NCBI GenBank assembly: GCA_963662715.1
Contig: OY759724.1
Coordinates: 120,001-152,000, forward strand
Direction of reading: 5' to 3'
DNA: 32,000 bases
DNA from: Candidatus Omnitrophota bacterium
Lineage (GTDB): Bacteria; Omnitrophota; Gorgyraeia; Zapsychrales; JANLHA01
Shown here: one piece after another, positions 9,307-31,997 of the stretch
Layout: each line of letters begins with the position of its first letter
How positions within the stretch are numbered: the stretch's first letter is position 1
Notes under the pieces: model-generated
What the model saw: the letters and a program-made list of their open reading frames with translations, nothing else
Database searches by the model: none
What the model was told of the DNA's origin: nothing
Translations under genes and position numbers: made by a program

Positions 9307-9309
9307 AAT

Positions 9310-9648: not shown

Positions 9649-9891
9649 TCACTCACAATCAAAAGAAACCAGACGCAGTTCCCGGGCAGGACTCTTTTCG
9701 ACGACAATTTCCGCCCCGTCCAAGACCGTCCCTTTTCCTTGTTCGGCAAAAAAGAACCGCAGAATTTCTTCATTAATTTCGGTATACTCCCCCATCCTCA
9801 AAAAAACTTTATTCACTTTGGATGTTTTCTGCTGTGTCGCATGATCCAAAAGATCTTTAAATAAATCTTTTATCAAGTGCATTTCATGCAT
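9649..9891 (-). CDS. HypA-like nickel metallochaperone lacking the zinc-finger domain
   Basis: 80 aa. It has the N-terminal MHE nickel-binding motif (MHEMHLIKD...). The body aligns by eye to the HypA N-domain. The C-terminal strand RELRLVSFDCE resembles the HypA C-terminal strand. The roughly 35 aa CxxC...CxxC zinc module is absent in frame. Confidence 0.7.
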   Translation of the reverse strand: MHEMHLIKDLFKDLLDHATQQKTSKVNKVFLRMGEYTEINEEILRFFFAEQGKGTVLDGAEIVVEKSPARELRLVSFDCE

Positions 9892-9902
9892 ACGCCTCTC
9901 CC

Positions 9903-11694: not shown

Positions 11695-12442
11695 GAGTCT
11701 TTATCTCCTCTAAATCCCTGGCTTTATTGTACATATTAAATTTATTTTCAATCCAATCCATTTGGATCTTATACTTTTCCATAACGTCCTTCTGGCCTTT
11801 TTCCGCCGGATTCGAGACCATCCCCCGGCATCCGTAACAGATATTCCCGTTATTGATACACCAGGAATTGCACCCCGCTTTTGTGATCGGCCCCAAACAG
11901 GTCACGCCTTTCTCGTACATACACACATTTTCATTCAGCTTGCACTCTGTGCAGACCGGATCATCCGGAACGCGGTAGGGCATACCGGCCAAAGCGCATT
12001 TCAAAACTTTAACAAATTCCGGGAGGTAGACCGGACAGCCGTGAACAAAATAATCGACTTTAACAACCTGATGGACGGCGCGTGTCGGGATGCTGTCAAA
12101 ACATTCCGCCTTATCCCGGTAAACATACTGACGGATCTCATCAAGCGGGAAGTTATTCTTCATCCCGTTCACCCCGCCGGTGGTCGCACAGGAACCGTAG
12201 GCTATGAGGACTTTGGCCGTATTTCTTATTTTTTTGATTCGTTCAACAGCGTGAGAATCCGTAATGCTGCCTTCAACAATAGCAACGTCATAAGCATCCG
12301 ACTTTTCGCTCATGACCTCCCTGAACTCAACAACTTCAATTTTGTCTAAAACATCCAGCAGAGCCTCTCCCATGTTGGCCACCTGCAATTGGCAGCCTTC
12401 ACAGCAGGCGAAATCAAAAAAAGCAACTTTAACTTTATTCAT
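11687..12442 (-). CDS. hydD: [NiFe]-hydrogenase small (delta) subunit
   Basis: 251 aa. FDFACCEGCQ proximal cluster motif, GSCATTGG, HGCP, and a Cys-rich C-terminal FeS region. Confidence 0.9.
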   Translation of the reverse strand: MNKVKVAFFDFACCEGCQLQVANMGEALLDVLDKIEVVEFREVMSEKSDAYDVAIVEGSITDSHAVERIKKIRNTAKVLIAYGSCATTGGVNGMKNNFPLDEIRQYVYRDKAECFDSIPTRAVHQVVKVDYFVHGCPVYLPEFVKVLKCALAGMPYRVPDDPVCTECKLNENVCMYEKGVTCLGPITKAGCNSWCINNGNICYGCRGMVSNPAEKGQKDVMEKYKIQMDWIENKFNMYNKARDLEEIKTHE

Positions 12443-12444
12443 AA

Positions 12445-13284
12445 TTATAATGCCTCGTAGTTTTGTTTAATTTCTTCATATGTAAACACCGGACCTTCCT
12501 GGCAACAATACACGTCGCCGATCTGGCAGTGCCCGCATTTCCCCACCCCACACTTCATATGGCGTTCCAAAGAAAGGACAATCTGATTATCCGGGAATTT
12601 CTTCTTCAGAAGCTCCTGAATGACGAACTTATACATGATGGGCGGCCCAACGATGACCGCATAAGTCTTCTTGGGATCACAATCCACCCCCGGGATCAAC
12701 TTGGTAATGAGCCCGACATTCCCTTTCCAAGTTTCGTCCGCCTGATCAACCGTCTTACTAATGACAACATCCGGCTTTTTTTCCCATTGCTCTAACTCAT
12801 CGACAAAAAGCATCGTCTGCGGGGTCTTGCATCCCAGCAAAATATTGACGGCTCCGAAATCTTCACGGTTATCCAGGACATAAGCAATCAAAGAATGCAG
12901 CGGGATGTTCCCGCAACCTCCTCCGATAAATAGCAGGTCTTTTCCCTTCAGGGTTTTAACGGGAAAACCTCTGCCAAATGGACCGCGAATCCCCACCGAA
13001 GCTCCGGCACTCAAGGCATGAAGGGCCGCGGTGAGCGTTCCGGCCTTACGAACGACCAGCTCAAAAGATCCCTTCTTCGTTGGCGAAGAAGAAATGGAAA
13101 TCGGGGCTTCTCCGACACCAGGGACAGAGATCATGACAAACTGTCCGGGATCATAGGTAAAATCATCAACACCGGCGAGCTGGATATCAAAATATGTTTC
13201 CAGATCGGTCATTTTCTTTTTGGTAACGATCGTCCCAGACATGACTTCATAAGGAGATTTTTCTAATAGCATTTGTTCTTTCAT
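12445..13284 (-). CDS. hydG: Hydrogenase gamma subunit: FAD/NAD(P)-binding oxidoreductase with C-terminal 2Fe-2S (AsrB-like)
   Basis: 279 aa. Ferredoxin-reductase-type fold motifs (PISISS, LLFIGGGCGNIP). C-terminal CGVGKCGHCQ...CC. ATGA coupling with hydB at 13281-13284. Confidence 0.88.
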   Translation of the reverse strand: MKEQMLLEKSPYEVMSGTIVTKKKMTDLETYFDIQLAGVDDFTYDPGQFVMISVPGVGEAPISISSSPTKKGSFELVVRKAGTLTAALHALSAGASVGIRGPFGRGFPVKTLKGKDLLFIGGGCGNIPLHSLIAYVLDNREDFGAVNILLGCKTPQTMLFVDELEQWEKKPDVVISKTVDQADETWKGNVGLITKLIPGVDCDPKKTYAVIVGPPIMYKFVIQELLKKKFPDNQIVLSLERHMKCGVGKCGHCQIGDVYCCQEGPVFTYEEIKQNYEAL

Positions 13285-14315
13285 TTCACATCCTTAGCCA
13301 AAGCATTAATGGTTTCTTTTAAATTTATATCAGCCATACACGTCCGGCTGCAGCGTCCGCATCCTGTACAGGCATAGGTATCCATCCGGTCAACAGGAAA
13401 ACGGAATTTTCTGTAATAACGATGCCGTTGCCGCTGGGAACGTTCCTCCCGGAAATTTTCTCCCCCGGCGACCTTGGCAAAATTTTCACTCTGGCACCCA
13501 TCCCACCTTCGGGAGCGCACCCCGGCGTTCAAATCCAGATTCAACTCGTCACGGATATCAAAGCAATAACAGGTTGGACAGACATTCGTGCAATTCCCGC
13601 ACGACAAACAGCGGCTGTTCAAATCCTCCCAGACAGGACTTTCATCGGCTTTCTGAAAAATTTCCTTCAGCTGCTTTCTCGGAACGTTGACTTCATCTTT
13701 AAAAATCTTTTCTTTCTTCGTCCTCAAAGCTGCCAGCGCTTCCTGGTCTTTCGCCGTGGCCTCTTGGAACAGTCCCGTTTTTTGAATGAGTGTTTGACCT
13801 TTATCCGTTTTAACATGCACCATAAAAATATCGTCCAAGTCCGTAAAAAACAAATCATATCCCTCTCCCGGGATATGATTATTCATAACCGCACAGCTTG
13901 CATATTCATCGCAATAATCATTGCACTCAAGCCCTATTAAAGTGATTTTGTTCTTCCTCGCCAAATAGTTGACATCCTGGGGATCATTCAACATCGCTTT
14001 GTTTAAAAACTGGATACCAGCCAAATCACAGGTATGAACTCCGAAGATAATCAATTCCTGACTGTCAACCACAGGAGTCCATTTCTTTTCGCTCTTATTG
14101 AATTCCTGGATAATTTCGTTCTGCGGCATAAAAAACTTTTTGGGAGGCAAGATGGTTGGGATGTACTTCAGGGACACCTCTCCGGCGCTGCGGACTTCGG
14201 CAAAGGCATAATTATTAAATCCTTTACTGACCGGCGCCACGACAGTGGATGCTTCTGCTGATTTTTTAATAAATTCTTCAAAATGCGTTTTCTGTAATAC
14301 GACATATTTATCCAT
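13281..14315 (-). CDS. hydB: Hydrogenase beta subunit: 4Fe-4S dicluster protein (AsrA-like)
   Basis: 344 aa. CLSCGNCTNVCPTCYC and CTGCGRCSRTC ferredoxin-type motifs. AAGAGG RBS upstream of the ATG at 14313-14315. Confidence 0.88.
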   Translation of the reverse strand: MDKYVVLQKTHFEEFIKKSAEASTVVAPVSKGFNNYAFAEVRSAGEVSLKYIPTILPPKKFFMPQNEIIQEFNKSEKKWTPVVDSQELIIFGVHTCDLAGIQFLNKAMLNDPQDVNYLARKNKITLIGLECNDYCDEYASCAVMNNHIPGEGYDLFFTDLDDIFMVHVKTDKGQTLIQKTGLFQEATAKDQEALAALRTKKEKIFKDEVNVPRKQLKEIFQKADESPVWEDLNSRCLSCGNCTNVCPTCYCFDIRDELNLDLNAGVRSRRWDGCQSENFAKVAGGENFREERSQRQRHRYYRKFRFPVDRMDTYACTGCGRCSRTCMADINLKETINALAKDVK

Positions 14316-14342
14316 TTTCCGGCCTCTTTTAATTTGATTAAA

Positions 14343-14365
14343 GATAATATTAGTACAATATTATC
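14343..14365. promoter_or_regulatory. Perfect 9-5-9 palindrome GATAATATT-AGTAC-AATATTATC overlapping the hydB -10
   Basis: Read directly from the sequence. The outer hexamers GATAAT/ATTATC are the Fur-box hexamer, but 11 nt apart instead of 7. It overlaps the predicted -10 hexamer (14363-14358) and the start-site region. Confidence 0.55.
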
Positions 14366-14385
14366 ACAAGTAATTTATCCGTCAA
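14358..14385 (-). promoter_or_regulatory. Candidate sigma70-type promoter of the hydBGDA operon
   Basis: Minus strand: TTGACG (14385-14380), 16 nt spacer, TGa-TAATAT extended -10 (hexamer 14363-14358). Confidence 0.6.
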
Positions 14386-14470
14386 CTAAATTGTCACGCC
14401 ATAAAAAAGCTATAAAGTCGATAAAATTCTCCCAAATGCCTTAAAAATTGCACCCCCCCGAAATAAGCCG

Positions 14471-15148
14471 TTAAGACGGCCGTTTCTCCCATTTGTTCTT
14501 CAGGGCCTGGTATTCATCTGCAGAATAATGCCGCTGGTCCAGGACCGAAGAGTCGATAAGATTGCTGCGCCCGACAAAATCCTGCAAAACGTAACGCTTG
14601 GCTTGCGTTAAAAACGGCCGCATCTCCTCCAAGTCCTCCCCATTGATAAACGGACGCACCATGGTGGAGCGGAACTCATAATCAATCGGAGCCCGGAGTA
14701 AAATTTTGATACTTTCAACGATACTGTCCGTATTGACCTTCACGCCGCAGGCAGCCGAATATCTCCGCAAAGACGTCTTGATGTCCAGGGCCACATAATC
14801 CACGAGTTCCTGCTGGATAAGACTTTTAAGGACATCCGGCCGGCTGCCATTGGTGTCCGCTTTCACCAGGAACCCCATGGTCTTCACCCTTTTCAGGAAA
14901 GGAAGAAGATCCGGCTGAATCATGGGCTCTCCCCCGGTGACAGCGACCCCCTGCAGGAGGCCCTTCCTCTGGTCAAGAAAACGAAGGATATCCTCTTCGG
15001 ATATGGGATTTTGAAATTGGGCAGGCAAGACCAGATCAGCGTTATGGCAAAAAGGACAGCGAAAATTACAGCCTTGTGTAAAGACAACTGCGGCAACCTT
15101 ACCCGGATAATCCACTAAAGAACTCTTTAAGAATCCTCCGACTTGCAT
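14471..15148 (-). CDS. nrdG: Anaerobic ribonucleoside-triphosphate reductase activating protein (radical SAM)
   Basis: 225 aa. CNFRCPFCHN radical-SAM cluster motif and a GGEP SAM-binding motif. Overlaps the nrdD 3' end by 22 nt. Confidence 0.92.
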   Translation of the reverse strand: MQVGGFLKSSLVDYPGKVAAVVFTQGCNFRCPFCHNADLVLPAQFQNPISEEDILRFLDQRKGLLQGVAVTGGEPMIQPDLLPFLKRVKTMGFLVKADTNGSRPDVLKSLIQQELVDYVALDIKTSLRRYSAACGVKVNTDSIVESIKILLRAPIDYEFRSTMVRPFINGEDLEEMRPFLTQAKRYVLQDFVGRSNLIDSSVLDQRHYSADEYQALKNKWEKRPS

Positions 15149-17247
15149 ATCTGATAAGTCTTTCTATTGAGGAACTCCTCCTTCTTGCCTTTATTCCACT
15201 GCTGAACCGGACGGAGATAACCGACAACCCTCGAATAAATCTCGCATTCATCTTCGCACTTCAAACAGTACTTATGCTCTCCGGCAATATACCCGCAGTT
15301 CGGACACACACTAAACGTCGGAGTGATCGTGAAATACGGAAGCCGGTAATTGGCACAAACGGTTTTAACCAATTGTTTAAGTGCCTCAACGTCGGAAATC
15401 CGTTCTCCCACAAAAATATGCAGAACCGTCCCTCCGGTGTATTTGGCCTGCAGATCATCCTGCCGTTCCAAGACCTCAAAAATATCATCGGAATAATTGA
15501 CCGGCAAATGCGTGGAATTGGTATAGAAAGGTTCTTTTCCGCTCTGACAGGAACATTGGTTCGCACAAAAGATATCCGGAAATTGTTCTTTATCCACCTT
15601 CGCCATGCGGTAAGACACCCCTTCTGCCGGAGTGGCTTCCAGGTTATAATTGTTCCCCGTTTCCTCCTGGAACTGGACCAGCTTTTCTCTCATGAAATCA
15701 AGAACCCTCAAGGCAAAAGCCCGCCCTTCTTCGGACGCAATATTCAGCCCTAACAAATTCTGGCACGCTTCATTCATGCCGATCAGCCCGATCGTGGAAA
15801 AATGATTTTTCCAATATTGATTGAAACGCTGTTTCACGGCACGCAGATAATAGCGTGAATAAGGATACAGGCCAGAATCGGTGAAGTCTTCCAGGACCTT
15901 TCTTTTGACCTCTAAACTCTCTTTGGCCAAAGACATCAAATGCTCAAGACGGGCGCAGAAATCATCTTCATCCTTGGAAACATGACCCAATTGGGGCAGG
16001 TTAATCGTCACAACGCCGATGGAGCCGGTTAAAGGCGAGGCTCCGAAAAGACCGCCGCCTCTCTTGCGCAGCTCCCGGTTGTCGAGCCGCAGGCGGCAAC
16101 ACATACTTCGGGCGTCTTCAGGGTTCATATCCGAATTCACAAAATTGGCAAAATACGGGATCCCGTATTTTGCGGTCATCTGCCAGAGAAGATAAAGGTT
16201 AGGATTATCCCAGTCGAAATCTTTCGAGATATTATACGTAGGAATCGGGAAGGTGAACACACGGCCCTTAGCATCCCCTTCCAGCATGACATCAAGAAAA
16301 GCCTTGTTAATAATATCCATTTCTTGCTGAAAATCTTTATATGTTTCCTGCTGAGGCTGCCCGCCGAGGATCACGGGTTCATCAGCAAAATGAGACGGGA
16401 CATGCAGATCAAAAGTCAAGTTTGTGAATGGGGTTTGGAATCCGACGCGGGTCGGGACATTTACGTTAAAAATAAATTCCTGCAAGGACTGCTTCACTTC
16501 GTCATAGCTTAATCCGTCGTAACGGATAAACGGGGCCAACAGAGTATCGAAATTCGAAAAAGCCTGGGCCCCGGCAGCTTCCCCCTGCAGGGTATAGAAA
16601 AAGTTGACGATCTGTCCTAAAGCGCTGCCGAAATGCTTGGCCGGAGCTGACTCCATTTTGCCCGAGGCGCCGCGGAAGCCGTTCTTCAACAGATCCTGCA
16701 GATCCCATCCGACGCAGTACACGCTGAGGAGTCCCAAATCATGGATATGGAAAAGGGCGTTACGGTGGGCTTCCTTAATCTGCGGTGTATAAATTTTGTT
16801 TAACCAGTATATTTTTGTAACTTCGGTCGATATATAGTTATTCAAGCCTTGCAGCGAATAAGCCATATTGCTGTTTTCATTGACTTTCCAATCCAAACGC
16901 TCCAAGTACTGATCGACCAATCCCACATGACTCTTAGAGGTGATTTCCCGGATCTTAGCATGTTGATCACGGTAGATAATGTAGGCTTTAGCAGATTTCT
17001 TATAAGGAGACGTCAGCAAAACATCCTCAACGATATCCTGAATCTCCTCCACACTCGGGTAATGCTCCGCGAACATCTGATGAGCGATGTTCACGGCACG
17101 AATAGTCAGGTTTCTCGCTACCGGTTCGTCGAACTCCCCCGTCGCCTGGCCGGCTTTAAGAATGGCTGTCGTAATCTTGTGGGGGACAAAGTCTTCAACC
17201 TTACCGTTGCGTTTAAGAATGCTGACAATAGTGCCCGTAGCCTGCAT
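15127..17247 (-). CDS. nrdD: Anaerobic (class III) ribonucleoside-triphosphate reductase
   Basis: 706 aa. N-terminal ATP-cone. C-terminal zinc ribbon (CPNCGY...CLKC) followed by the glycyl-radical motif RVVGYL. AGGAGG RBS. Confidence 0.95.
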   Translation of the reverse strand: MQATGTIVSILKRNGKVEDFVPHKITTAILKAGQATGEFDEPVARNLTIRAVNIAHQMFAEHYPSVEEIQDIVEDVLLTSPYKKSAKAYIIYRDQHAKIREITSKSHVGLVDQYLERLDWKVNENSNMAYSLQGLNNYISTEVTKIYWLNKIYTPQIKEAHRNALFHIHDLGLLSVYCVGWDLQDLLKNGFRGASGKMESAPAKHFGSALGQIVNFFYTLQGEAAGAQAFSNFDTLLAPFIRYDGLSYDEVKQSLQEFIFNVNVPTRVGFQTPFTNLTFDLHVPSHFADEPVILGGQPQQETYKDFQQEMDIINKAFLDVMLEGDAKGRVFTFPIPTYNISKDFDWDNPNLYLLWQMTAKYGIPYFANFVNSDMNPEDARSMCCRLRLDNRELRKRGGGLFGASPLTGSIGVVTINLPQLGHVSKDEDDFCARLEHLMSLAKESLEVKRKVLEDFTDSGLYPYSRYYLRAVKQRFNQYWKNHFSTIGLIGMNEACQNLLGLNIASEEGRAFALRVLDFMREKLVQFQEETGNNYNLEATPAEGVSYRMAKVDKEQFPDIFCANQCSCQSGKEPFYTNSTHLPVNYSDDIFEVLERQDDLQAKYTGGTVLHIFVGERISDVEALKQLVKTVCANYRLPYFTITPTFSVCPNCGYIAGEHKYCLKCEDECEIYSRVVGYLRPVQQWNKGKKEEFLNRKTYQICKSEDS

Positions 17248-17991: not shown

Positions 17992-19263
17992 TTAAAAACT
18001 GTATTTGATTCTAAAATAAATATTTTTATTTCTTTTCATCTGACCAAATTCTGTTGAGTCATCTTCCCCCCAGGGGATATTCAGGCCGACAGTCCCCTTC
18101 CATTGATCCGTAATGTCATACGTGACGGAAGGCCGGACATAACCGTCTTTATCCGACGGAGAATAAAAATTGAACAGCGACACCTGCACCGTCTGGTGCT
18201 TGAATAGCTTGGTCACACGCTGCGTCAGGACATGACGGAATTCATCAAAAACAAAATCCGTCGGCAAAAGGCTCTCTTTATATTCCTTATAGTCCAATCT
18301 CTGCTCGTAATAATACTGGAACCCGACTTTCCAATCCTGCCCCAAATCCTGAGAGTACCCCAACAGTGTTTTCAGGAAAGAATTTTCTATCAAACGGTTG
18401 GTCCCGCTGGAATCTTCCCGGGCGTTTACATACCCCATTTCCGCATAACCTATCCCTTTGGCGAAAGGACCGCGCAGACTCCCCCCGTAAACATCCACGC
18501 GGGGGTAATACAGCTGACGGGCGGCCTCATCTTTAATGCCGACAGGATTTTTATCAAAGCCCCGGAAATAATACCAGGACCACTCATTGCTGCCGAAGGA
18601 ACGATACATCCGCAAAGCGTACTCGTTATTAGCCATCTGCCAGGCAGGCTCCAGCAACTCGCGGTCGGAAGCCCGGCCGGCCAGCCCCCCCTGAAACATG
18701 TCAAAAAAAGACAAACGGTCACCCTGCGCCGTCGTGTTGGGAGTGAACTTCGGGATAACAATGAAGTCGATATTCACGACTTCCGGATACAGGGAAACCT
18801 TCAGCGCATCAGAGGGTTTCTTAAGGTATTCATCCTCCCTCCCGCAGAAAAAAGAAACATAATCCTTTGGGAACATATCGTTAATAAAAATATAATCTCC
18901 TGTCCCCCAGGTCAGAATCTGACGGCCGATTTTCGCATCCATGAAATCAAAGGGGACGAAAGAAAAATTCAGCTCCCGCAGCTCAAAGCCGGTTTTCCCG
19001 GAATAGTATTCATCGACGGTAAAATCCCCTTTGAGATTCAAAATGCCCCCGTGCTCTCCCCAATACCCCTCTTCCAGGAAATAATTCGCCTTCAACTGCA
19101 GCCGCTGTTCCAGCAAATTATAATTGTCCCGTTTTGTCTGATCGTCGGACAGCTTAACGCCATAGTCCATGCCCACAAAACCATGGATAGCGGGGAATTC
19201 CCAAGCCCAACTGAACTGAGGGGACATCAGTAAGACAAGAATAACAAATATTTTTCTCTTCAT
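17992..19263 (-). CDS. Outer-membrane beta-barrel protein (family not identified)
   Basis: 423 aa. Signal peptide (MKRKIFVILVLLMSPQFSWA). Alternating-polarity Tyr/Gly-rich strands. C-terminal YFRIKYSF with a terminal Phe, typical of BAM substrates. The start overlaps the upstream stop by 1 nt. Confidence 0.7.
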   Translation of the reverse strand: MKRKIFVILVLLMSPQFSWAWEFPAIHGFVGMDYGVKLSDDQTKRDNYNLLEQRLQLKANYFLEEGYWGEHGGILNLKGDFTVDEYYSGKTGFELRELNFSFVPFDFMDAKIGRQILTWGTGDYIFINDMFPKDYVSFFCGREDEYLKKPSDALKVSLYPEVVNIDFIVIPKFTPNTTAQGDRLSFFDMFQGGLAGRASDRELLEPAWQMANNEYALRMYRSFGSNEWSWYYFRGFDKNPVGIKDEAARQLYYPRVDVYGGSLRGPFAKGIGYAEMGYVNAREDSSGTNRLIENSFLKTLLGYSQDLGQDWKVGFQYYYEQRLDYKEYKESLLPTDFVFDEFRHVLTQRVTKLFKHQTVQVSLFNFYSPSDKDGYVRPSVTYDITDQWKGTVGLNIPWGEDDSTEFGQMKRNKNIYFRIKYSF

Positions 19264-20060
19264 TACTTAACCCATTTTGTAGGCGGACGCCTTAGATAGC
19301 GTTCCGCAAAAATATCCTCCGTCAGCCCCGCATCATACTGCACATCTTTAAATTCCATAAGCGTTTCCCCTCCCCGTTCGACATCAACGGCCTTTGACCG
19401 CATGACCGTAGGATAGCCCTGAATGTCCTTGATGTCCAAAGCTTCTATCGTTCTGATGACTTTCCCGTCGCCATTGTAATACTCCGCTTTGGCGGGAAGG
19501 AAATTATCTTTCCGGACGTATAAATCATAATAGGCGAACTCGAGGCCCTGCGTTTCTTTGGGCGTATTCCGGAGTTTGTAGAACTCGTCTGTCGTTTCGA
19601 GCAGCTCATGCGTGTCGGCATTGATGCTCCGGCCGGAAACATCTTCATAGACAAAATGCGACCCCACAAAACTGGAGCGCTTATCACTGGCGGCAATGCG
19701 TCTGACCAAATCCAAGGCCGGCAAATACAGCCAACGGTCATCATCCCGGTCGACTTTCTTCCACACCATGTAAACCATGCGGGCCACATCCGTCGGTTTC
19801 CGGAAATACACATAAAATTTCTGTTCCCCTCCATCCCCCACGTCATAACGCATGATGCGAAATTCTCTGACCCGTTCACGGCCCTGGGCATCTTTAATTG
19901 TCATAACAACATCGGACAGCCCGTCTTTCCCGGCATAATAAGATGCCTGATTGGCTTTCTGCACAATGTCATCCACAGTCAAGGGCTGAGCATGCCCCCG
20001 GGCTCCCCCGGAAAAAAGGACAAGCAGCATCACGACAAAAGATAAAGACCTTCTCATCAT
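19263..20060 (-). CDS. LolA-like outer-membrane lipoprotein-sorting family periplasmic protein
   Basis: I chose the ATG at 20058-20060, which overlaps the RND TGA as ATGA. This gives signal peptide MMRRSLSFVVMLLVLFSGGARGHA. Family-typical segment RWLYLPALDLVRRIAASDKRSSFVGSHFVYEDV. The track N-terminal extension lies inside the RND gene. Confidence 0.8.
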   Translation of the reverse strand: MMRRSLSFVVMLLVLFSGGARGHAQPLTVDDIVQKANQASYYAGKDGLSDVVMTIKDAQGRERVREFRIMRYDVGDGGEQKFYVYFRKPTDVARMVYMVWKKVDRDDDRWLYLPALDLVRRIAASDKRSSFVGSHFVYEDVSGRSINADTHELLETTDEFYKLRNTPKETQGLEFAYYDLYVRKDNFLPAKAEYYNGDGKVIRTIEALDIKDIQGYPTVMRSKAVDVERGGETLMEFKDVQYDAGLTEDIFAERYLRRPPTKWVK

Positions 20061-22573
20061 CACTCCTCCTTTGGTGTACATATCGTTCTTTTGGAAGCCA
20101 GATGACAGAGGGCGGCAAACAGAACGATAACGGCCATTGTTATAAAAGTGTTTATTTTCCATCCCGCCGTCGTATAGCCGAAAAGGATATAGGCAACGGC
20201 CAGAGCGACAAAAGCGGCCACTAAAACACACGACCGGCAATCGCAGCCGATTTTCCCTTCGGACTGACTAAAAATCCATCTCGGTTTGACCGTTATGATC
20301 GCCGGGAGGATCAACAATGTCGCCGCGCTTGAGACGGCCATAATCATGAACATAAAAAACCCCACTGTTTTATAAGGCACCAGCGGTGCCGCCAGCAAGG
20401 GCAAAAACCCGACGGCAACAACAATCGCGTTGCGGACAATAGCCCGGCCCGGGCCCTGGAACAGCTCCAGGGACGTCTGCTCCCAGGAGCCTTTTGATTC
20501 ATGCACCATAACCGCCCGCTGAATAAAATGAATGGCGAAATCAACGGATAACCCGAGAGTTAGGGCCGACAGGACAGCCACCGGCATGTCATAATCTTTG
20601 CCGAAATATCCCAGGAGGCTGTAAATAAATAAAATCGTTACGGAAAGAGGCATCATCGAAACCAGGGCCTTGAAAGGAGAGCGGAACAAGAAAAGCATCA
20701 TAAACAGGACGATGACAAAACTGCCCATAAAATTCTTCATCATGCCTCCGACCATATTATTCTGCCACACGACGTTAATATAGGTCAACCCGGCCCAGTT
20801 AAAGTCAACCGGATACGGGGGGGGATTTTCCTGCTGATAGCGGGCGACAAACCGCCGCACTTTCTCCATATCCTTGTTATCACCGCTTCTAAGCTGCACC
20901 CAGATATTCACCTTTTCGTAATCAGGCGTCGTAAGATGCCACAGATCGTCAGGCTTGTGAGAGTTCTCAAAAGAAATCAGGCATTGCGCAACAGCCTCTT
21001 TTGTGGCCGGGATCACGTTGTTCGCCTGATCTCCTCCCAGGAGTTCATAATATATTTTTTTGACAATATCAGCCAAGGAGGTTGTCTTTCCGACCAATCC
21101 GCTGAAAAGCAGCTTTTGCTGAAGTTTCTCTATATATTTCAGCATATCGGGCTGCAGAAAAATCTCTTCCCCCTGTTTCTTCGCGTTTAAAACAAGGTAA
21201 GCTTCGTAGGTCCCGCCAAAATGCTTATTCAGGACACGGTCCGCCCGCCGGATCGGATGATTGGCGCTAAACCAGCGCACAGGATTATCATTGACCTGAA
21301 TACGGCTGATGCCGTACAGCGACAGCAGGATAAGAACACCTGTCCCCAACAAAACCGTTTTCGCGCGCTGAAAGGAAAAACCGCGAGCGGCCTGTAATAT
21401 ATTATTCATGAAGGGGGCAGATTCATCGACTTGCACCTTTTCCAATTTTTTCAGGGAACCCTCTTTCAGCAACATGATATAAGCGGGGATCAAGATCATC
21501 GTTAATATCCAAGCGATGAGGATTCCGATGGCGACAAAAACGCCAAAGACCTGCACCGGAGGGATCGGGGAAAAGGAAAGAGAAAAAAATCCGACAGCTG
21601 AAGTGAGCGAAGTATAGAGCATCGGGCTGAACAGTTCTTCAAAGACCGCAAGAATGGTTTTCCTGCGGTCTTTGATCCGCGGATAAAAATCAAAGAATTC
21701 ACTGAGGATGTGAACAGAATCCAAAACAGCGATCGGCATCAGAAAGATCGGGATCATAGAACTCATGATATGAACCGGATAGCCCAATCCGATCAGCAGC
21801 CCCATGGTCAGCAGGACCGTGACCAGAGCCAGAATCATCGGGGCAGCAATAAGCCCCAAAGATTTAAAAAACACCCACATCAGCAAAAAAATCACAATCC
21901 CGGCTAAAGGAGCGGAGATGGCCATCTGCTTAAACATTTCCACGCCAAACTGATCGTTGGCGATGGGCAGCCCCGTGATATAATACTGGGACGTGCCGTG
22001 ATAGTGCTCCAATATTTTTCTGATCTCGGAAGCGATCTCATAGCTCATATCTTTCTGTTTAATGGGGATATATAGACACAGGGCTTTCCCGTTCGAAGAA
22101 ATAACCGTATCGCGGAACATCGGATGATTCATCGCCTGGTCCCGGATCTTCAAAGCCTCTTCCCGTGTTTTAGGCGGAGAGGCCATGAGCCAGTTAAAGC
22201 GAACCGCGCCCAGGCTTTCCTGTTCGATATTATCCTTGGTGGAAGGAGATATAATTTCATGAGCAATGACCCCGTCCAGCTTCTTGATATCTTCTGTCAA
22301 ATAATAAATATTGGCCAATGTTCTGCTGTTGAAAACGCCGTCCTCATTCGTCTCATCAACAATCCCCAGGACAATCATGTCATACAGGGCGAATTCCTTC
22401 TTCACCTGGCGGTGAAAAATACGGACCGGAGCTTCGGCAGGAAGCATGTTTTCCGGGTCTGTGTCCACTTTTATTCGAGGAAACTGAATCAAGGCCAGCA
22501 GAACAAATGCCAGTGTCACCCAGATGATTCTAGCCGGATACTTTAGAGCCAGCTCAATAATCCTCTTCAACAT
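20060..22573 (-). CDS. MMPL/RND-superfamily exporter (COG1033-type, HpnN-like architecture)
   Basis: About 837 aa, with two 6-TM bundles separated by large periplasmic loops. I chose the ATG at 22571-22573, preceded by GGAGG 8 nt upstream. The track start at 22597 is a TTG. Confidence 0.9.
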   Translation of the reverse strand: MLKRIIELALKYPARIIWVTLAFVLLALIQFPRIKVDTDPENMLPAEAPVRIFHRQVKKEFALYDMIVLGIVDETNEDGVFNSRTLANIYYLTEDIKKLDGVIAHEIISPSTKDNIEQESLGAVRFNWLMASPPKTREEALKIRDQAMNHPMFRDTVISSNGKALCLYIPIKQKDMSYEIASEIRKILEHYHGTSQYYITGLPIANDQFGVEMFKQMAISAPLAGIVIFLLMWVFFKSLGLIAAPMILALVTVLLTMGLLIGLGYPVHIMSSMIPIFLMPIAVLDSVHILSEFFDFYPRIKDRRKTILAVFEELFSPMLYTSLTSAVGFFSLSFSPIPPVQVFGVFVAIGILIAWILTMILIPAYIMLLKEGSLKKLEKVQVDESAPFMNNILQAARGFSFQRAKTVLLGTGVLILLSLYGISRIQVNDNPVRWFSANHPIRRADRVLNKHFGGTYEAYLVLNAKKQGEEIFLQPDMLKYIEKLQQKLLFSGLVGKTTSLADIVKKIYYELLGGDQANNVIPATKEAVAQCLISFENSHKPDDLWHLTTPDYEKVNIWVQLRSGDNKDMEKVRRFVARYQQENPPPYPVDFNWAGLTYINVVWQNNMVGGMMKNFMGSFVIVLFMMLFLFRSPFKALVSMMPLSVTILFIYSLLGYFGKDYDMPVAVLSALTLGLSVDFAIHFIQRAVMVHESKGSWEQTSLELFQGPGRAIVRNAIVVAVGFLPLLAAPLVPYKTVGFFMFMIMAVSSAATLLILPAIITVKPRWIFSQSEGKIGCDCRSCVLVAAFVALAVAYILFGYTTAGWKINTFITMAVIVLFAALCHLASKRTICTPKEE

Positions 22574-22599
22574 CTCCACCCCCTCCTTTTTTAGCAAGG

Positions 22600-25987: not shown

Positions 25988-26551
25988 TTAAAACCGCGGC
26001 ACATGAATCGCGGAACGGCCTTCACTGCTGCCTTCCCATGCTTCAACACTGCCGGAGCCATCCTGCACGCTCAGGCCAATATGGATCCAGCGCACATCTT
26101 CTGCCGTGGCCGTGGCTGTTTCCGTACTGTCATAAAACACAAACAACGTGTTCCCAATCCCGCTCATGGTTATGGCGGCAGGGACATAATACGGAATAAG
26201 ATTTTCTGCCCCGCCGTCAATGGAACGGTATAATTTTCCTGTCCCGGTATCTAAACGATAGCGGACCGTGTGCCCGTCCTGATTCACAAAAGTCAAATCA
26301 TTGGCGGCAATGGATGTCATGGACTGGCTGCAGCGCAGGCCGGCCGCGGTTGCGTCTCCGTCAATAAGAAGGTTTAACGTATCGGCCAGCACCATGTCGG
26401 TGTTGAGCTGATTAGGCAAATAAACGGCATTCTGCACGAAATGCATAAGGATGTACGCCGCCGGGACCGACAAAATGCCCACGATCACGATCACCATGAT
26501 CATTTCAACTAGGGTGAAACCTTTGCCTCGATTATACTCCAAATTGGACAT
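25988..26551 (-). CDS. Minor (pseudo)pilin, PilW/GspJ-like
   Basis: 187 aa. Prepilin leader MSNLEYNRGKG / FTLVEMIMVIVIVGIL with Glu at +5. Confidence 0.8.
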   Translation of the reverse strand: MSNLEYNRGKGFTLVEMIMVIVIVGILSVPAAYILMHFVQNAVYLPNQLNTDMVLADTLNLLIDGDATAAGLRCSQSMTSIAANDLTFVNQDGHTVRYRLDTGTGKLYRSIDGGAENLIPYYVPAAITMSGIGNTLFVFYDSTETATATAEDVRWIHIGLSVQDGSGSVEAWEGSSEGRSAIHVPRF

Positions 26552-26930
26552 TTTTCACGCGATAAGTTATAAAACTTGCCAAGACTTCCGATGATCCGCT
26601 CTTGGTGACTTCAATCTGAACCTGTTTCAGGCTTTCTGCACTGGAGGGATTTCCCTGCACATAAGTCACTGTGGTTGAGACATCGAAGTCATAGCCCTCA
26701 TAATTCGCCTGGCTTTCCGTCAACAGACTGTCATAGGCCGCATTATTCAAACGCTCCATTTCCCTGCGGCCCAGTTGAGCGGCCATGACCTGATCCGAGG
26801 ACATAAACGTTCCTTCAACATGCTCATAAAGCAGCAGTGTTAAAGGAACCGCAACGATACCCAGAACAACCATCGTCATAACAAGCTCAACCAGCGTCAC
26901 TCCTCTTGTCTTCTTACGGGCTGACTTCAC
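26532..26930 (-). CDS. Minor (pseudo)pilin, PilV/GspI-like
   Basis: 132 aa with a GTG start. Leader ...KKTRG / VTLVELVMTMVVLGIV, with Val rather than Phe at +1 and Glu at +5. Confidence 0.75.
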   Translation of the reverse strand: MKSARKKTRGVTLVELVMTMVVLGIVAVPLTLLLYEHVEGTFMSSDQVMAAQLGRREMERLNNAAYDSLLTESQANYEGYDFDVSTTVTYVQGNPSSAESLKQVQIEVTKSGSSEVLASFITYRVKNVQFGV

Positions 26931-28029
26931 TGTTGTCCTCCTCCAGGGCCATCACCTCACCGGTCAGGCTGTTGTATGTCGCAGCCATGGTTCGGTACAC
27001 GGACGATTGAGCCGTTTTGCCGGTGGACCGCACGGTAAAGTTATTATTATCCGATTCCGGATAAACGAGCACGGATTTCGAGGAACCGTCGGCCATAACA
27101 AACTCAATGCTGGCTGTCGTGGCGTCCGCCATGGTCCCGGAGAATTCAAGATGATCAATGCTGTATATTGTCTGGGACGCGTTTAAAGTAAAATCCGGAT
27201 TAAGATTCGCGTCGGCGGAACTTGAAGCGCTCCCGGTCCAGACCGTCTGGGCATCTATCACGATCTCTTCCAATTGATGAGCATTATCCCATGTGACAAT
27301 CATACGGTCTATGGTAATCGTCTGAGAATCCGTGACGTTCTGTATATAAATGTCTGTTAATTTATTTCCATCGATGCAATCCTGCAAATCGTCATCACAT
27401 TCCGTCACACACGTTAAATAATCCGCATAACACTGGTCGCGGCAATTCCCCCAGGCATCATCACAGGCACCGTAAGCATCGTATAAATCAAGCTGACACA
27501 GGATGCGGCACAGCCATCCCTGCCATCCCCCCGGGCAGGCCGCGCGGCAGGCCTCATAAACAGCATAAGCATCATCATAACATTCATCCTGGGCATCATC
27601 GCAGTCCTCGTAACAATCATTCCTGTCATCACGGCATTCCCTGCGGCAAGTTCTGGCCATGGCCCGGCATTCCCGAGGCGTATACTCTCCCCCTAATACC
27701 GTGAAAGAAGTGTTGACCATCAGGAGGTCCGCCTGAGATCCGCCGATCACAAAATAATTATTGCTGTCAATATCGGTCTGCCCCAGGCTGAAGTAGCCGT
27801 TGCCGGAAAGGTCGTTGTTCCGGAAATCGTACAGGGCGCTGTGAATCCCGGCCTGAGCTAAATAAATGGCCTGATTGTTAACCGTTTGGGTTTCCGAAGA
27901 GACCAAACGTTCCACGACAAAAGTTGTCACGCCATAAACCGAAATCGTCGCAAAAGCGATCAGCAGAATAGTCGTTAAAAGGATAACGCCGTTTTTCTTC
28001 CCGAAATGTCTGCCTGAGAAATTTTTCAA
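26914..28029 (-). CDS. PilX/GspK-like minor pilin carrying a 16-Cys acidic insert
   Basis: 371 aa. TTG is the only in-frame start after an upstream TAG. Basic N-terminus plus TM (GVILLTTILLIAFATISVYG). PilX_N-like AQAGIHSAL. No Glu at +5. The Cys-rich segment is aa 121-218, followed by a beta-rich C-terminal domain. Confidence 0.65.
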   Translation of the reverse strand: MKNFSGRHFGKKNGVILLTTILLIAFATISVYGVTTFVVERLVSSETQTVNNQAIYLAQAGIHSALYDFRNNDLSGNGYFSLGQTDIDSNNYFVIGGSQADLLMVNTSFTVLGGEYTPRECRAMARTCRRECRDDRNDCYEDCDDAQDECYDDAYAVYEACRAACPGGWQGWLCRILCQLDLYDAYGACDDAWGNCRDQCYADYLTCVTECDDDLQDCIDGNKLTDIYIQNVTDSQTITIDRMIVTWDNAHQLEEIVIDAQTVWTGSASSSADANLNPDFTLNASQTIYSIDHLEFSGTMADATTASIEFVMADGSSKSVLVYPESDNNNFTVRSTGKTAQSSVYRTMAATYNSLTGEVMALEEDNSEVSP

Positions 28030-28132: not shown

Positions 28133-28522
28133 TTAAGCGCTTAAACCGACAATATCTTGCAATTTCTGAATAAGTTGATCAAAAGTATAAGGTTTGTCCA
28201 AGAAATGGTGGATGCCGCAAGCAAACAATTTCTGCTTCGCCTGATCATCTATCACCCCGGAAGAAACAATGATCGGGATGTCTTTCAAATTCCTGTCATC
28301 TTTAGCTTGCCGGATGACTTCATATCCATTAAGATTACGCATCTGGATATCCAATAAAACAACCGCGACAGCATGGGTCCGCATGAGATCCAAAGCTTCA
28401 TAACCGTCTCTGGCGACTAAAGGTTCTAAAGAAATATTCGGGTCCACGAGAATCCTTCTTAAAACCATTTGAATAATGATTTCCTCGTCATCAACAATAA
28501 GGATATACTTTTTATCTTCCAT
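28133..28522 (-). CDS. Stand-alone CheY-like response-regulator receiver
   Basis: 129 aa from the ATG at 28520-28522. Acidic pocket DDEE, phospho-acceptor LLDIQM, IIVSSG, and conserved Lys in LDKPY. No output domain. The TTG-extended track ORF would read through the hairpin at 28576-28607. Confidence 0.88.
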   Translation of the reverse strand: MEDKKYILIVDDEEIIIQMVLRRILVDPNISLEPLVARDGYEALDLMRTHAVAVVLLDIQMRNLNGYEVIRQAKDDRNLKDIPIIVSSGVIDDQAKQKLFACGIHHFLDKPYTFDQLIQKLQDIVGLSA

Positions 28523-28575
28523 ATTTTTCAACGGCCGGCCCGCCGCCGCAAGCGGTACAGGCGCTAAGGAGAACA

Positions 28576-28607
28576 ATGCCGACTATGAGAAAAATCATAG
28601 TCGGCAT
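28576..28607 (-). terminator. Perfect 13 bp stem / 6 nt loop hairpin downstream of the major pilin gene
   Basis: ATGCCGACTATGA-gaaaaa-TCATAGTCGGCAT, read directly. It begins 30 nt after the pilin stop. On the minus strand it is followed by UGUUCUCCUU, a modest U-tract. It is a likely partial terminator or mRNA-stabilising element. Confidence 0.5.
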
Positions 28608-28636: not shown

Positions 28637-29005
28637 TTACGGCGTTTCAAATGATCCATCGGAAGAATCATAGGCATAAGATCCGGTGTTAGGACCGACG
28701 TAATTCCCCGAAGCATCCACGCTCCAATCATCTGTGACGCCGCCTTGAGCCAGGACACTGCCGAAACAGACATTACCGGTCGTACAGTCCCCTTGTGTGG
28801 CTGAGTCCAACGAGGTAGGCCAATCTTTATACTTTGCAAAATAAGTCTGGATACCGGCACGGACACCGCCGACAATACCTTTTTCCGCCGCATCATTCGC
28901 ATCATCCTGCAAATTAAAATATTGGGGGATGGCCACAGCCGCAAGAATACCCAAAATAACAATCACCATGATTAACTCGATTAACGTAAACCCTCTTCTT
29001 CTCAT
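28637..29005 (-). CDS. Major type IV pilin / pseudopilin
   Basis: 122 aa. Short leader MRRRG / FTLIELIMVIVILGILAAVAIPQY with Glu at +5. C-terminal Cys pair (CTTGNVC) suggests a small disulfide loop. Strong AAGGAGGAG RBS. Confidence 0.9.
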   Translation of the reverse strand: MRRRGFTLIELIMVIVILGILAAVAIPQYFNLQDDANDAAEKGIVGGVRAGIQTYFAKYKDWPTSLDSATQGDCTTGNVCFGSVLAQGGVTDDWSVDASGNYVGPNTGSYAYDSSDGSFETP

Positions 29006-29224: not shown

Positions 29225-30283
29225 TTATTTAAACAGCTTCATTAAACTCCACATAGGCATAAAAATTCCTAACGCCAGGAACAGAACTGTGCTTCCAAGA
29301 AAAACGATCAAAACAGGCTCAATCAAGGACACGAGATTATTAATGGTGTACTCAACCTGCGCATCATAATAATCAGCGACATGAATCAGCAATTCGTCCA
29401 ATTTTCCGGTCTCTTCCCCCACCGAAACCATCTGCGTCACGACAGGAGGAAATAATCCGCTGGCTTTCATCGGATCAAGCATTCCTTTACCGTCATTGAC
29501 GCTGATCCGTATCCGTTCAATAGCCTGGGCGATAACGGCATTATCGGACGTTCCTTTGACAAGATCAAGAATGGTCAAAATAGGCACACCACTTTTTAAA
29601 AGAGTCGATGTGATCCGGCAAAACCGGGATAAACTGATTTTCTGAATCATCGACCCGAAGATAGGCACCCGGAGAAAAATCCGGTCACAGACATATTTGC
29701 CATGCGGAGTCCTCACATAGTGAAAAAAAGCAAAAGAAGCCAAGCCGACGAGAATGATCACCAGCCACCAGTAGTGCACAATGCTGTTGTAAATAAGCAA
29801 CAATAATTGTGTCGGGAGAGGCAAAGCCGTATCAAATTTCGAAAAAATATTCGTAAATTTGGGGACGACAAAGAGCACCAGGGAAACAAATCCAACGATT
29901 AGTGTCACGACAACAATGAGCGGATACCGCATAGCTGATTTAATGTGCATACGGATCTTCTCATCGTGTTCTCCCAGCGTCGCCAGCCGGTCCAGAATCT
30001 GGTCGAGCTTCCCGGAGACTTCCCCGGAACGCACCATGTTGACATAGATCGAGCTGAAAATGCGAGGATAAGAACTTAAGGCCTCCGAAAGGCTTGAGCC
30101 CGATTCAATCCTTTGCGCAACCTGATCTACGACATCTTTCAGAACCTCGTTTCCCGTTTGGTCGCGGATGGCGTGCAAACTCATCAGCATCGGAAGACCC
30201 GCCCTCTGCAAAGTATAGAGCTGGCGGGTGAACATATTGAGGTCGGAAAATTTGACCCTTCGGGTATCTTTTTTAGCAGCCAT
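29225..30283 (-). CDS. pilC: PilC/GspF-family inner-membrane platform protein
   Basis: 352 aa with duplicated T2SS-F domains (FTRQLYTLQRAGLPML... and FCRITSTLLKSGVPIL...) and three TM segments. Confidence 0.92.
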   Translation of the reverse strand: MAAKKDTRRVKFSDLNMFTRQLYTLQRAGLPMLMSLHAIRDQTGNEVLKDVVDQVAQRIESGSSLSEALSSYPRIFSSIYVNMVRSGEVSGKLDQILDRLATLGEHDEKIRMHIKSAMRYPLIVVVTLIVGFVSLVLFVVPKFTNIFSKFDTALPLPTQLLLLIYNSIVHYWWLVIILVGLASFAFFHYVRTPHGKYVCDRIFLRVPIFGSMIQKISLSRFCRITSTLLKSGVPILTILDLVKGTSDNAVIAQAIERIRISVNDGKGMLDPMKASGLFPPVVTQMVSVGEETGKLDELLIHVADYYDAQVEYTINNLVSLIEPVLIVFLGSTVLFLALGIFMPMWSLMKLFK

Positions 30284-30320: not shown

Positions 30321-31997
30321 TTAATCTGTCAAAGTGACACGCAGGACCTCTTCCGGGGTTGTCATCCCCATCCGTACGAGCTGTTGACCGGCTTCCCGCA
30401 AATTCTTAAATCCTGTTTTTCTCGCCTCTTTACGGATATCGTCCGCTGAGGCCCGCAATTCAATACACCGGCGCACATCCTCGGAAATAGGCAGGAGCTC
30501 AAAAATTCCTGTGCGGCCTTTCAACCCGGTACCATCACATTCGCGACAGCCTTTCCCGCGATAAATGAATTCCACGTCTTCTATGCCAAAATCCTCCAGC
30601 AGCGATTTATTGGCTTTGATCTTTTCCTTGCATTTATAGCAAATGGTCCGGACCAGCCTTTGGGCCAGGATACCTATCAGCGACGTGGAAAGGAGAAAAG
30701 GCTCAATCCCCATGTCCAGAAGCCGGGACAGGGTCGAAGGGGCATCGTTCGTGTGCAGGGTCGCAAACACCAGATGGCCGGTCAGGGCGGCCTGAATAGC
30801 GATATCAGCGGTTTCCCTGTCCCGGATTTCCCCAACCATAATGATATCCGGGTCCTGCCGCAGAATACTGCGTAAGCCTGTCGCAAACGTTAATCCGGCT
30901 TTGGGATTAATCTGCGTCTGCCTGATAAGCGACAGCTCATATTCCACGGGATCTTCTATCGTCACAATCTTTTTCTCCATCGTGTTGATCTGCGATAAGG
31001 CCGCATAAAGTGTCGAGGTCTTCCCGCTGCCGGTCGGGCCGGTAACCAGCACGATCCCGTAAGGACGGTTGATCATTTTCTGAAACAACTGCAACTCATC
31101 GTCTAGGAAACCGAGCTCTTTCAAGCCCAGCAAAACAGAACTCTTGTCCAGGACGCGGAGGACGAAATTTTCCCCATGAATTGTGGGGAAAGTTGAGGCC
31201 CGCAGGTCCAGATCTTTATTATCGATCTTCAGGCGAATCCTTCCGTCCTGGGGCTTCCGGCTTTCGGCAATATCCATTTTGGACATGATTTTAATCCGTG
31301 AAATAACCCCGCTTTGTATTTTTTTCGGCAACATCTTCAATTCCTGCAAAATCCCATCGACACGCAGCCGGACCCTCACTCCGTCCTCCTCAGGCTCAAT
31401 ATGAATATCCGAAGCGTGATCTTTAACGGCCTGGGCAATAATAATATTCACCAATTTGACCAGCGGAGCCCCGGATCCGACATCAGATTTCCCTCCTACG
31501 ATATCTTCGTTATCGATGGACTTAACAATATCATCAATGGAACTGCCGATGCCGAAACAGGCATCCAACAAACGTTTCACCCCGCGCTCAGAGACCAGGA
31601 CCGGGTCTACGGTGTCAATCTTGCATATTCTTCTTAACTGGTCAAGCGCCACAATGTCCTGAGGGTCAACCATCCCGACGGTAATACTCTTCCCGATTTT
31701 GAAAAGGGGGACGAGATTGAACTTCTTGCAAACTTCCTTAGGGACCATCGCGATGATTTCCGGATCGACAATATAATCGCTTAAATCCATGTAGGGAATG
31801 CCCAGGGCATTCGCACGGACCTTGACAATATCTTCTTCCGTCACAAGCTCGAGCTTGATCAAAGCCTTCTCGATGTTCAATCCGCTCATCTGAGCCTCCC
31901 GCCGGGCGTACTCAAGCATTTTCTCGGTGATGATCCCTTCTTTCAGCAGAAGATGAACGATCTCTCTATAGCGGCGTAAATTAGCCTTAGGGCTCAC
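30321..31997 (-). CDS. pilB: PilB/GspE-family secretion ATPase
   Basis: N-terminal GspE-N/MshEN-like domain. Walker A GPTGSGKTS, Asp box, Walker B IIMVGEIRD, His box, and tetracysteine CYKC...CRECDGTG. The listed start is a GTG at 31995-31997 and the frame stays open to the window edge, so the true N-terminus may lie outside. Confidence 0.92.
   Translation of the reverse strand: MSPKANLRRYREIVHLLLKEGIITEKMLEYARREAQMSGLNIEKALIKLELVTEEDIVKVRANALGIPYMDLSDYIVDPEIIAMVPKEVCKKFNLVPLFKIGKSITVGMVDPQDIVALDQLRRICKIDTVDPVLVSERGVKRLLDACFGIGSSIDDIVKSIDNEDIVGGKSDVGSGAPLVKLVNIIIAQAVKDHASDIHIEPEEDGVRVRLRVDGILQELKMLPKKIQSGVISRIKIMSKMDIAESRKPQDGRIRLKIDNKDLDLRASTFPTIHGENFVLRVLDKSSVLLGLKELGFLDDELQLFQKMINRPYGIVLVTGPTGSGKTSTLYAALSQINTMEKKIVTIEDPVEYELSLIRQTQINPKAGLTFATGLRSILRQDPDIIMVGEIRDRETADIAIQAALTGHLVFATLHTNDAPSTLSRLLDMGIEPFLLSTSLIGILAQRLVRTICYKCKEKIKANKSLLEDFGIEDVEFIYRGKGCRECDGTGLKGRTGIFELLPISEDVRRCIELRASADDIRKEARKTGFKNLREAGQQLVRMGMTTPEEVLRVTLTD

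Follow-up and report, generated by a model that had tools for sequence, protein, structure and literature searches.

A cysteine ladder in a pilin-like protein

A pilus operon on contig OY759724.1 of a Candidatus Omnitrophota bacterium encodes a 371-amino-acid (aa) pilin-like protein whose 16 Cys residues form a mirror-symmetric ladder. The window, that is, the whole stretch of 32,000 nucleotides (nt) that was analyzed, carries this operon on its reverse strand, and the coordinates of its features are collected in Table 1. The ladder gene begins with TTG. An in-frame TAG lies 12 nt (four codons) upstream, and no start codon other than this TTG keeps the hydrophobic N-terminus of the protein. 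An identical 371-aa protein is present in NCBI/ENA (P0001), and the best match among the GTDB representatives, which do not include the source genome itself, has 63% identity.

All 16 Cys residues fall within residues 121-218, at positions 121, 128, 132, 139, 143, 150, 161, 165, 174, 178, 189, 196, 200, 207, 211, and 218. The remaining 273 residues contain zero Cys, compared with a background of 1.75% Cys in the other open reading frames (ORFs) of the window. The spacings along the ladder are 6-3-6-3-6-10-3-[8]-3-10-6-3-6-3-6, and the members of every mirrored pair sum to 339. The same segment contains 19 Asp, 5 Glu, 9 Arg, no Lys, 8 Tyr, and 3 Trp. A preliminary description of the window had listed these positions, spacings, sums, and composition, and translation reproduced all of them.

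Given arm 1, an exact mirror is expected by chance about once in 4.5e8, so the ladder is confirmed as lying far beyond chance. Part of the palindrome follows automatically from the periodic 6-3-6-3-6 run. This does not hold for the equal length of the arms, their register with respect to the loop, or the mirrored 10-3-[8]-3-10 core. This core, the equal arms, and insertions or deletions that are coupled between the arms of homologues rule out a trivial effect of periodicity. A mirror-ladder detector run in six frames over 439 kb (the window plus 34 loci) fired at known ladder genes only. No tandem or inverted DNA repeats of note occur in 27300-27750, which argues that recent slippage is not the source of the symmetry.

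The fold of the protein was predicted with AlphaFold2 (AF2). The full-length model, built from an 80-sequence alignment, has a mean predicted local distance difference test score (pLDDT) of 93.9 and a predicted template modeling score (pTM) of 0.73, and the hairpin alone, built from 13 sequences, reaches 96.1 and 0.79. In these models, the ladder forms the two antiparallel helices that the preliminary description had proposed, with Cys165 just beyond the end of the arm-1 helix. A pilin-like head precedes the hairpin. The all-beta sandwich that follows it is common to homologues without a ladder.

The Cys residues of each arm lie within a 33 degree stripe at 11/3 periodicity, with i+4, i+7, and i+11 spacings. 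Within an 11-residue repeat, they fall at positions a and h and therefore line one face of each helix, in agreement with the earlier suggestion. The regular series skips one rung, where Ala154 stands opposite Ala185; position 154 is Ala in 18/18 sequences with the full ladder and position 185 in 13/18. When two antiparallel helices are represented by a toy model with 11/3 periodicity, an axis separation of 8-9.5 Å allows a Cβ-Cβ distance of 3.9 Å in all eight mirrored pairs. If the helices are instead straight, at 100 degrees per residue, the distance at the end rungs grows to 6-8 Å, which implies some supercoiling. At 1.5 Å for each of 44 residues, the modeled rod would measure about 66 Å.

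Conservation, insertion, and a wider module family

The protein family assembled here comprises 80 members including the window protein. Its 79 homologues divide into 17 with the full ladder, 4 with a shorter ladder, and 58 without one. All named homologues and all 28 related loci come from metagenome-assembled genomes of Candidatus Omnitrophota. The 16-Cys spacing is identical in 17 homologues at 48-67% identity, and thus in 18 sequences with the window protein. Every ladder Cys is at least 90% conserved across the ladder-bearing sequences (n = 22), and within the 16-Cys clade, P166, G168, and G171 are invariant together with all 16 Cys residues. The shorter ladders have fewer rungs. P0020 has seven rungs spaced 6-3-6-3-6-3-[5]-3-6-3-6-3-6 (arms of 33/33 residues), P0021 has seven rungs and one additional residue in arm 2 (33/34), P0019 has five (22/22), and P0066 has five spaced 3-6-3-3-[5]-3-3-6-3 (19/19). 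The canonical arms measure 44/44 residues, so both arms change length together across the variants. The mirror pattern is strictly conserved.

The 58 Cys-free homologues (about 217-304 aa) have a loop of 0-10 residues where the ladder would stand. The site is bounded by the motifs LMVxTS..LGG, present in all 80 sequences, and L..L.IQNATNS. P0028, the one ladder-free form whose neighborhood was looked up, occupies the same operon position, and the ladder-bearing orthologues share the pilus operon too. This clean absence between conserved boundaries indicates that the ladder is a lineage-specific insertion in an otherwise Cys-poor protein, as the preliminary description had supposed. In a rough neighbor-joining tree of the flanking domains, drawn without support values, the 16-Cys forms make up one clade, and the shorter ladders are basal and interleaved with a few ladder-free sequences.

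The surface of the hairpin is more variable than its framework. Within the 16-Cys clade, mean pairwise identity is lowest at the non-Cys positions of the hairpin (41%), compared with 57-64% in the other domains. Across homologues, the net charge of the hairpin ranges from -1 to -15 and the number of aromatic residues from 0 to 11. The acidic and aromatic composition that had been highlighted in the window protein is therefore specific to a sub-clade and does not characterize the ladder as such. Five sequences (P0006, P0008, P0010, P0017, and P0081) have one or two extra Cys residues elsewhere in the protein, such as in the hydrophobic segment near the N-terminus, and their total is then odd. 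The number of Cys residues within the ladder is even in every case.

The ladder is not unique to this pilin; it is one member of a wider, unannotated family of modules. A search with the hairpin profile against 1.84 billion representative proteins returned 46 matches at E <= 1e-3. Three belong to the pilin family, and the remaining 43 are unrelated proteins with the same kind of mirrored ladder. The E-values of these matches (1e-8 to 1e-3) depend mainly on the Cys columns and do not separate homology from convergence. Over the 43 proteins, the Cys-Cys spacings peak at 3 (409 occurrences), 6 (279), 10 (179), 8 (60), 14 (25), and 17 (10), with few other values. Those of 3, 6, 10, 14, and 17 correspond to the same-face steps i+4, 7, 11, 15, and 18, and 8 is the preferred loop. 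The window protein fits this module, with mirrored arms, same-face spacings, and a loop within the range of 5-13 residues. Its residues 139-200 match a common 62-aa core, 3-6-10-3-[8]-3-10-6-3, of which 29 non-redundant copies were collected from more than 20 proteins; in most of them, the skipped rung has Ala and the tip is rich in Pro and Gly. C-P-x-G tips of a similar kind are found in unrelated ladder proteins. A word-indexed search with the profile of this core returned P0109 only; such a search depends on 5-mers in common and does not suit the module.

Members of the family (P0081-P0124, for example L034:2132-2590) range from single five-rung units to arrays of two to four hairpins and proteins with more than 70 Cys residues. 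Ladders of three to at least 14 rungs occur across dozens of unannotated exported proteins. P0109, P0111, and P0084, each about 100 aa long, combine a signal peptide with a single five-rung hairpin spaced like the common core. In P0111 (112 aa), residues 1-28 form a leader with the twin-arginine-like motif TQRRFFLS; the leaders of most relatives are of the plain Sec type. P0085, P0086, P0097, P0104, and others carry two to four tandem hairpins. The exact 16-Cys pattern of the window protein recurs in P0093 (409 aa) at residues 26-123, directly after the signal peptide. There, a poly-Glu linker and a coiled-coil-like region come after the hairpin, and the protein is not a pilin. P0092 (842 aa, encoded on a 50-kb JGI contig) contains, within residues ~474-835, two alternating CX3C/CX6C runs of at least 14 Cys each around a central turn; if the runs pair, they would form a rod of more than 200 Å with about 30 rungs.

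One further host bears directly on pili. P0122 is a PilY1-type protein of 942 aa with an eight-rung ladder, 3-6-3-6-3-6-3-[8]-3-6-3-6-3-6-3, encoded in a proteobacterial pilY1-pilE-ispH-lspA-ileS-ribF-murJ-rpsT neighborhood. P0122 is thus a second, independent placement of the ladder module on a pilus-tip protein. Pfam families cover the ladder in 0/44 proteins scanned and NCBIfam families in 0/10. No characterized Cys-rich domain was matched in the Pfam, NCBIfam, and PDB searches, in line with the preliminary description, which had recognized no eight-rung version on a pilus tip protein.

Pilin class and the pilus operon

The leader and the start of the mature part read MKNFSGRHFGKKNG and VILLTTILLIAFATISV, respectively. 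The short basic leader ends in Gly14, which is at least 90% conserved in ladder-bearing homologues, and is followed by about 20 hydrophobic residues. Mature position +5 is Thr19 in the window protein and Thr, Ser, Ala, or Gly in homologues, whereas the operon's other pilins have Glu there. In the AF2 prediction, a long N-terminal helix (residues 12-73) followed by strands at residues 83-106 resembles the alpha1 helix and sheet of pilins.

Database searches returned little for this protein. Pfam and NCBIfam yielded no match to the N_methyl, PilX_N, or T2SSK profiles. The only Pfam hit at E <= 0.1 was ChitinaseA_N (0.086, sub-threshold), and the best NCBIfam hit was ComGG (E = 0.091), with 13.4 bits against a cut-off of 40. 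A Foldseek search of the full model against the PDB gave zero matches at E <= 0.001 and no solved minor pilin. Its best filament-related match was Iho670 (probability 0.30), and the others were weak CBM/CE2-like or generic beta-sandwiches. The full model had no significant match in BFVD. The hairpin-only model retrieved long helical hairpins from the PDB, none of them significant. PDB sequence and profile searches with the protein, the family profile, and the hairpin profile found no match.

The protein shares several features with GspK, PilX, and ComGG, including a leader ending in Gly, an alpha1 helix without Glu at +5, the largest size in the minor-pilin set, and the gene order. GspK itself has a large insertion in its pilin fold. 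However, neither hidden Markov models (HMMs) nor Foldseek link the two, and the C-terminal beta-sandwich was not recognized in PDB searches. The PilX/GspK-like label of the preliminary description is therefore without HMM or fold support and is drawn from the Gly14 leader, the missing Glu at +5, and the gene order. These N-terminal features and the gene order make a location at the pilus tip probable.

Table 1. Features of the pilus operon and the ladder protein in the window, and the proteobacterial ladder gene in L033.
Feature	Position	Strand	Evidence
PilB/MshE-type assembly ATPase	30321..31997	-	Pfam T2SSE E = 6e-140, plus MshEN
PilC/GspF platform protein	29225..30283	-	Pfam T2SSF E = 3.6e-61
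Major pilin, 122 aa, canonical G|FTLIE motif	28637..29005	-	N_methyl and GspG/PilA-type matches
Stand-alone response-regulator receiver gene	28133..28576	-	Pfam Response_reg E = 4.5e-20
Gene for 371-aa ladder-bearing pilin-like protein, TTG start	26914..28029	-	ORF list and translation
Residues 1-73: basic leader to Gly14, hydrophobic segment, alpha1-type helix (12-73)	27811..28029	-	Sequence, AF2
Residues 83-106: three short predicted beta strands, pilin-like head, ending at insertion site	27712..27783	-	AF2
16-Cys mirror-symmetric ladder, residues 121-218	27376..27669	-	Translation, alignments
Arm 1, predicted helix 118-163, Cys 121, 128, 132, 139, 143, 150, 161	27541..27678	-	AF2 pLDDT 94-98
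Tip C165-P-G-G-W-Q-G-W-L-C174	27508..27537	-	Alignments; AF2 non-helical turn 164-167
Arm 2, predicted helix 168-219, Cys 174, 178, 189, 196, 200, 207, 211, 218	27373..27528	-	AF2 pLDDT 94-98
Residues 223-365: predicted C-terminal all-beta sandwich, 11 strands	26935..27363	-	AF2 pLDDT ~95
Minor pilin, 132 aa, 17-nt overlap with ladder-gene end	26532..26930	-	N_methyl, weak PilV match
Minor pilin, 187 aa	25988..26551	-	N_methyl, weak GspH/GspJ matches
PilM-PilN fusion, 619 aa	24081..25940	-	Pfam PilM_2 and PilN
PilO-like protein, 192 aa	23500..24078	-	Sub-threshold PilO match; position kept in related loci
P0122 gene (PilY1-type)	L033:2339-5167		Pfam T4P_PilY1, weak PilC-adhesin match
P0122 ladder	L033:3032-3283		

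The operon is transcribed in the order PilB, PilC, major pilin, receiver, ladder protein, two minor pilins, PilMN, and PilO-like protein. The arrangement PilB-PilC-pilin-(receiver)-X-pilin-pilin-PilMN-PilO is common to the window and L001-L004. The receiver gene between the major pilin and the ladder gene has the same place in L003. In L001 and L004, a receiver gene lies upstream of pilB, after a PAS-HisKA-HATPase-PilZ kinase. The PilM-PilN fusion, which includes a low-complexity linker of about 200 aa, is kept in L001, L003, and L004. Four orthologues, with identities as low as 58% and including a ladder-free lineage, all retain the CX5C pair (C74 and C80) of the major pilin. In the Omnitrophota, type IV pili are nearly universal and have been proposed to serve in attachment to host cells (PMC10066038).

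The stretch at 1531-17247 on the same strand encodes NrdD with its radical-SAM activase (NrdG), HypF, HypD, HypE, the HycI protease, FeoB, Fur, and a four-subunit NiFe hydrogenase that includes FAD/NAD and 4Fe-4S subunits. NrdD/NrdG, the NiFe hydrogenase with its Hyp genes, FeoB, and Fur point to an anaerobic host. PFOR is encoded in related loci.

Interpretation of the ladder

The nearest known structures with mirrored Cys residues are helical hairpins with two rungs. Plant alpha-hairpinins carry twin CX3C motifs on antiparallel helices, joined by nested C1-C4 and C2-C3 disulfides (PMC7191063). Small Tim proteins form a twin-CX3C helical hairpin with two juxtaposed interhelix disulfides (PMC3759932). 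The alpha-hairpinin/vicilin-buried peptide motif, XnC1X3C2XnC3X3C4Xn, is the same sub-pattern as the ladder tip, C161X3C165-X8-C174X3C178. However, alpha-hairpinins are free plant peptides of 30-40 aa, whereas the ladder has eight rungs over 98 aa and lies within a 371-aa pilin-like protein, and Pfam and PDB searches gave no sequence homology between the two. The twin-CX3C (small Tim) and twin-CX9C (CHCH, Cox17) proteins resemble the ladder in being helix-loop-helix structures with mirrored, same-face Cys residues. Unlike the ladder, with its eight rungs at i+4/i+7/i+11 on a bacterial surface organelle, they have two rungs and are oxidized by Mia40 in the eukaryotic intermembrane space. Pfam zf-Tim10_DDP and CHCH did not match the ladder protein at E <= 0.1.

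Other comparisons concern overall shape or the host protein. The nearest PDB shapes to the hairpin model are the receptor-binding coiled-coil hairpins of colicins E3, E9, and E2, each a long rod of two antiparallel helices whose far end binds the cell-surface receptor BtuB. However, these Foldseek matches are not significant (E ~0.6, root-mean-square deviation ~10 Å), and the colicin hairpins have no Cys ladder. P0109, P0111, P0084-P0086, P0093, and P0122 share with the ladder its mirrored arms, a tip of Pro and Gly, and an Ala where the rung is skipped, although their hosts are unrelated to the pilin (small secreted proteins, tandem arrays, enzyme-like proteins, and PilY1). In searches of the literature, multi-rung helical cystine ladders and Cys-rich minor pilins of this type were not found, and the precedents have two rungs only. 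The best reading is that the ladder is a multi-rung version of the twin-CX3C cystine-stabilized alpha-hairpin, the closest known kind.

The segment is probably a rigid two-helix rod stapled by eight disulfides, set into a surface loop of a minor pilin of the tip class and having an adhesive or probing role, although considerable doubt attaches to this combination. On this proposal, the protein would be inserted into the membrane by the Sec route, and its extracytoplasmic part would then be exposed. Each Cys i on arm 1 would pair with Cys 339-i on arm 2, giving eight nested interhelix disulfides. The resulting thin rod would withstand proteases and pulling force. It would hold the C-P-x-G-x-x-G-x-x-C tip loop away from the pilus body and would probably act as an adhesive or probing projection at the pilus tip. 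Disulfides are favored by the presence of mirrored ladders in exported proteins, among them proteins with Sec-type leaders and a proteobacterial PilY1, and by the even Cys counts. The invariant CX5C pair of the major pilin, present in lineages with and without the ladder, lends further support. A force-bearing adhesive role is suggested by the variable surface on an invariant scaffold, the recurrence on PilY1, and the proposal that Omnitrophota pili mediate attachment.

Several observations weigh against this reading. The ladder protein has no HMM or fold link to GspK, PilX, or ComGG. The AF2 hairpin could be a mere extrapolation from the Cys periodicity, and charge covariation between the arms is uninformative, with no enrichment on the mirror diagonal of 29 core units, too small and phylogenetically structured a set. 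The host is an anaerobe, judging from NrdD/NrdG and NiFe hydrogenase in the window and PFOR in related loci, and extracellular disulfides may be hard for it to make or keep. P0111 has a twin-arginine-like leader, and such leaders are typical of proteins exported folded with a cofactor. Finally, reduced twin-CX3C motifs bind zinc 1:1 through all four Cys residues (PMC3759932).

The last three points also speak for a metal-thiolate or iron-sulfur array, which we regard as unlikely. In such an array, facing CX3C pairs (128/132 with 207/211, 139/143 with 196/200, and 161/165 with 174/178) would make up four-Cys sites about 16 Å apart that hold Zn, Fe, Ni, Cu, or clusters. In an anoxic habitat rich in Fe(II), such a pilus tip would be redox-active, would sense or scavenge metals, or would bind minerals. 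The nearby FeoB, Fur, NiFe hydrogenase, and NrdD genes of an anaerobe and the net acidic hairpin of every homologue (-1 to -15) would suit such a function. However, 121/218 and 150/189 are isolated two-Cys rungs, and variants with five or seven rungs leave one rung outside the four-Cys grouping, which favors pairwise bonding over four-Cys sites. The hairpin offers no His or auxiliary ligands and no CXXC motifs, and a cubane cluster could not be buried in two helices. The signal peptides of most relatives are of the ordinary Sec type, and a proteobacterial PilY1 is among the relatives. Through the Sec/prepilin route, pilins reach the membrane in an unfolded state, and a pilin inserted in this way has no obvious route to a cofactor; we know of no extracytoplasmic Fe-S assembly system. 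A more specific version, in which a line of thiolate-metal or Fe-S sites makes the rod an electron conduit or a contact probe for metals or minerals, is quite improbable. If true, such a cofactor-bearing rod would be a pilus redox module unlike cytochrome nanowires or aromatic e-pili.

It is unlikely that the hairpin is a neutral expansion, in which a Cys/Ala/Asp/Arg-rich 11-residue repeat grew in a tolerant loop and is constrained only not to disturb pilus assembly. The low conservation of its non-Cys positions (41%), the variation from five to eight rungs between lineages, and the fact that most homologues function without it would agree with such an origin. However, the 16 Cys residues, P166, G168, and G171 are invariant at 48-67% identity, no DNA-level tandem repeat points to recent slippage, and the module recurs independently in PilY1. 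It is very improbable that the Cys residues mainly form intermolecular cross-links to other copies, to pilins, or to a host-cell surface protein, and so lock the tip complex or a contact covalently. With unpaired arms, the Cys stripe would face the solvent, and the operon has no PilY1-type adhesin in the window or related loci, so that the ladder protein might attach instead. However, mirror symmetry and coupled arm lengths are predicted by intramolecular pairing and are not required here, AF2 pairs the arms of the isolated monomeric segment (pTM 0.79), and stand-alone single-hairpin secreted proteins carry the same pattern.

What is new is a natural, conserved helical hairpin with eight rungs, compared with the two-rung forms known from small Tims, CHCH proteins, plant hairpinins, and some toxins. 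If the rungs are disulfides, there would be one per ~8 Å, and the design would be useful to engineers of hyperstable scaffolds. To our knowledge, few alpha-helical rods would then match it in density of cross-links. The finding also raises the question of how eight disulfides outside the cell would be made and maintained by an anaerobe. The module is found on at least two tip-associated or tip-class pilus proteins, the Omnitrophota minor pilin and the proteobacterial PilY1, which suggests that a thin projection able to bear force on a retractile fiber is repeatedly built in this way. Omnitrophota pili are thought to attach to host cells (PMC10066038), so the ladder protein is a candidate contact point.

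Two minor observations concern the rest of the window. The region 3' of the pilus operon (17992-22597, reverse strand) contains no secretin gene and encodes an MMPL/RND-like transporter (845 aa), a LolA-like protein, and a DUF1302-like putative outer-membrane protein. The HypD ORF (2589-3713) and the HypE-like ORF (1531-2733) overlap by 145 nt at 2589-2733, most likely because the start of the downstream ORF was called too early.

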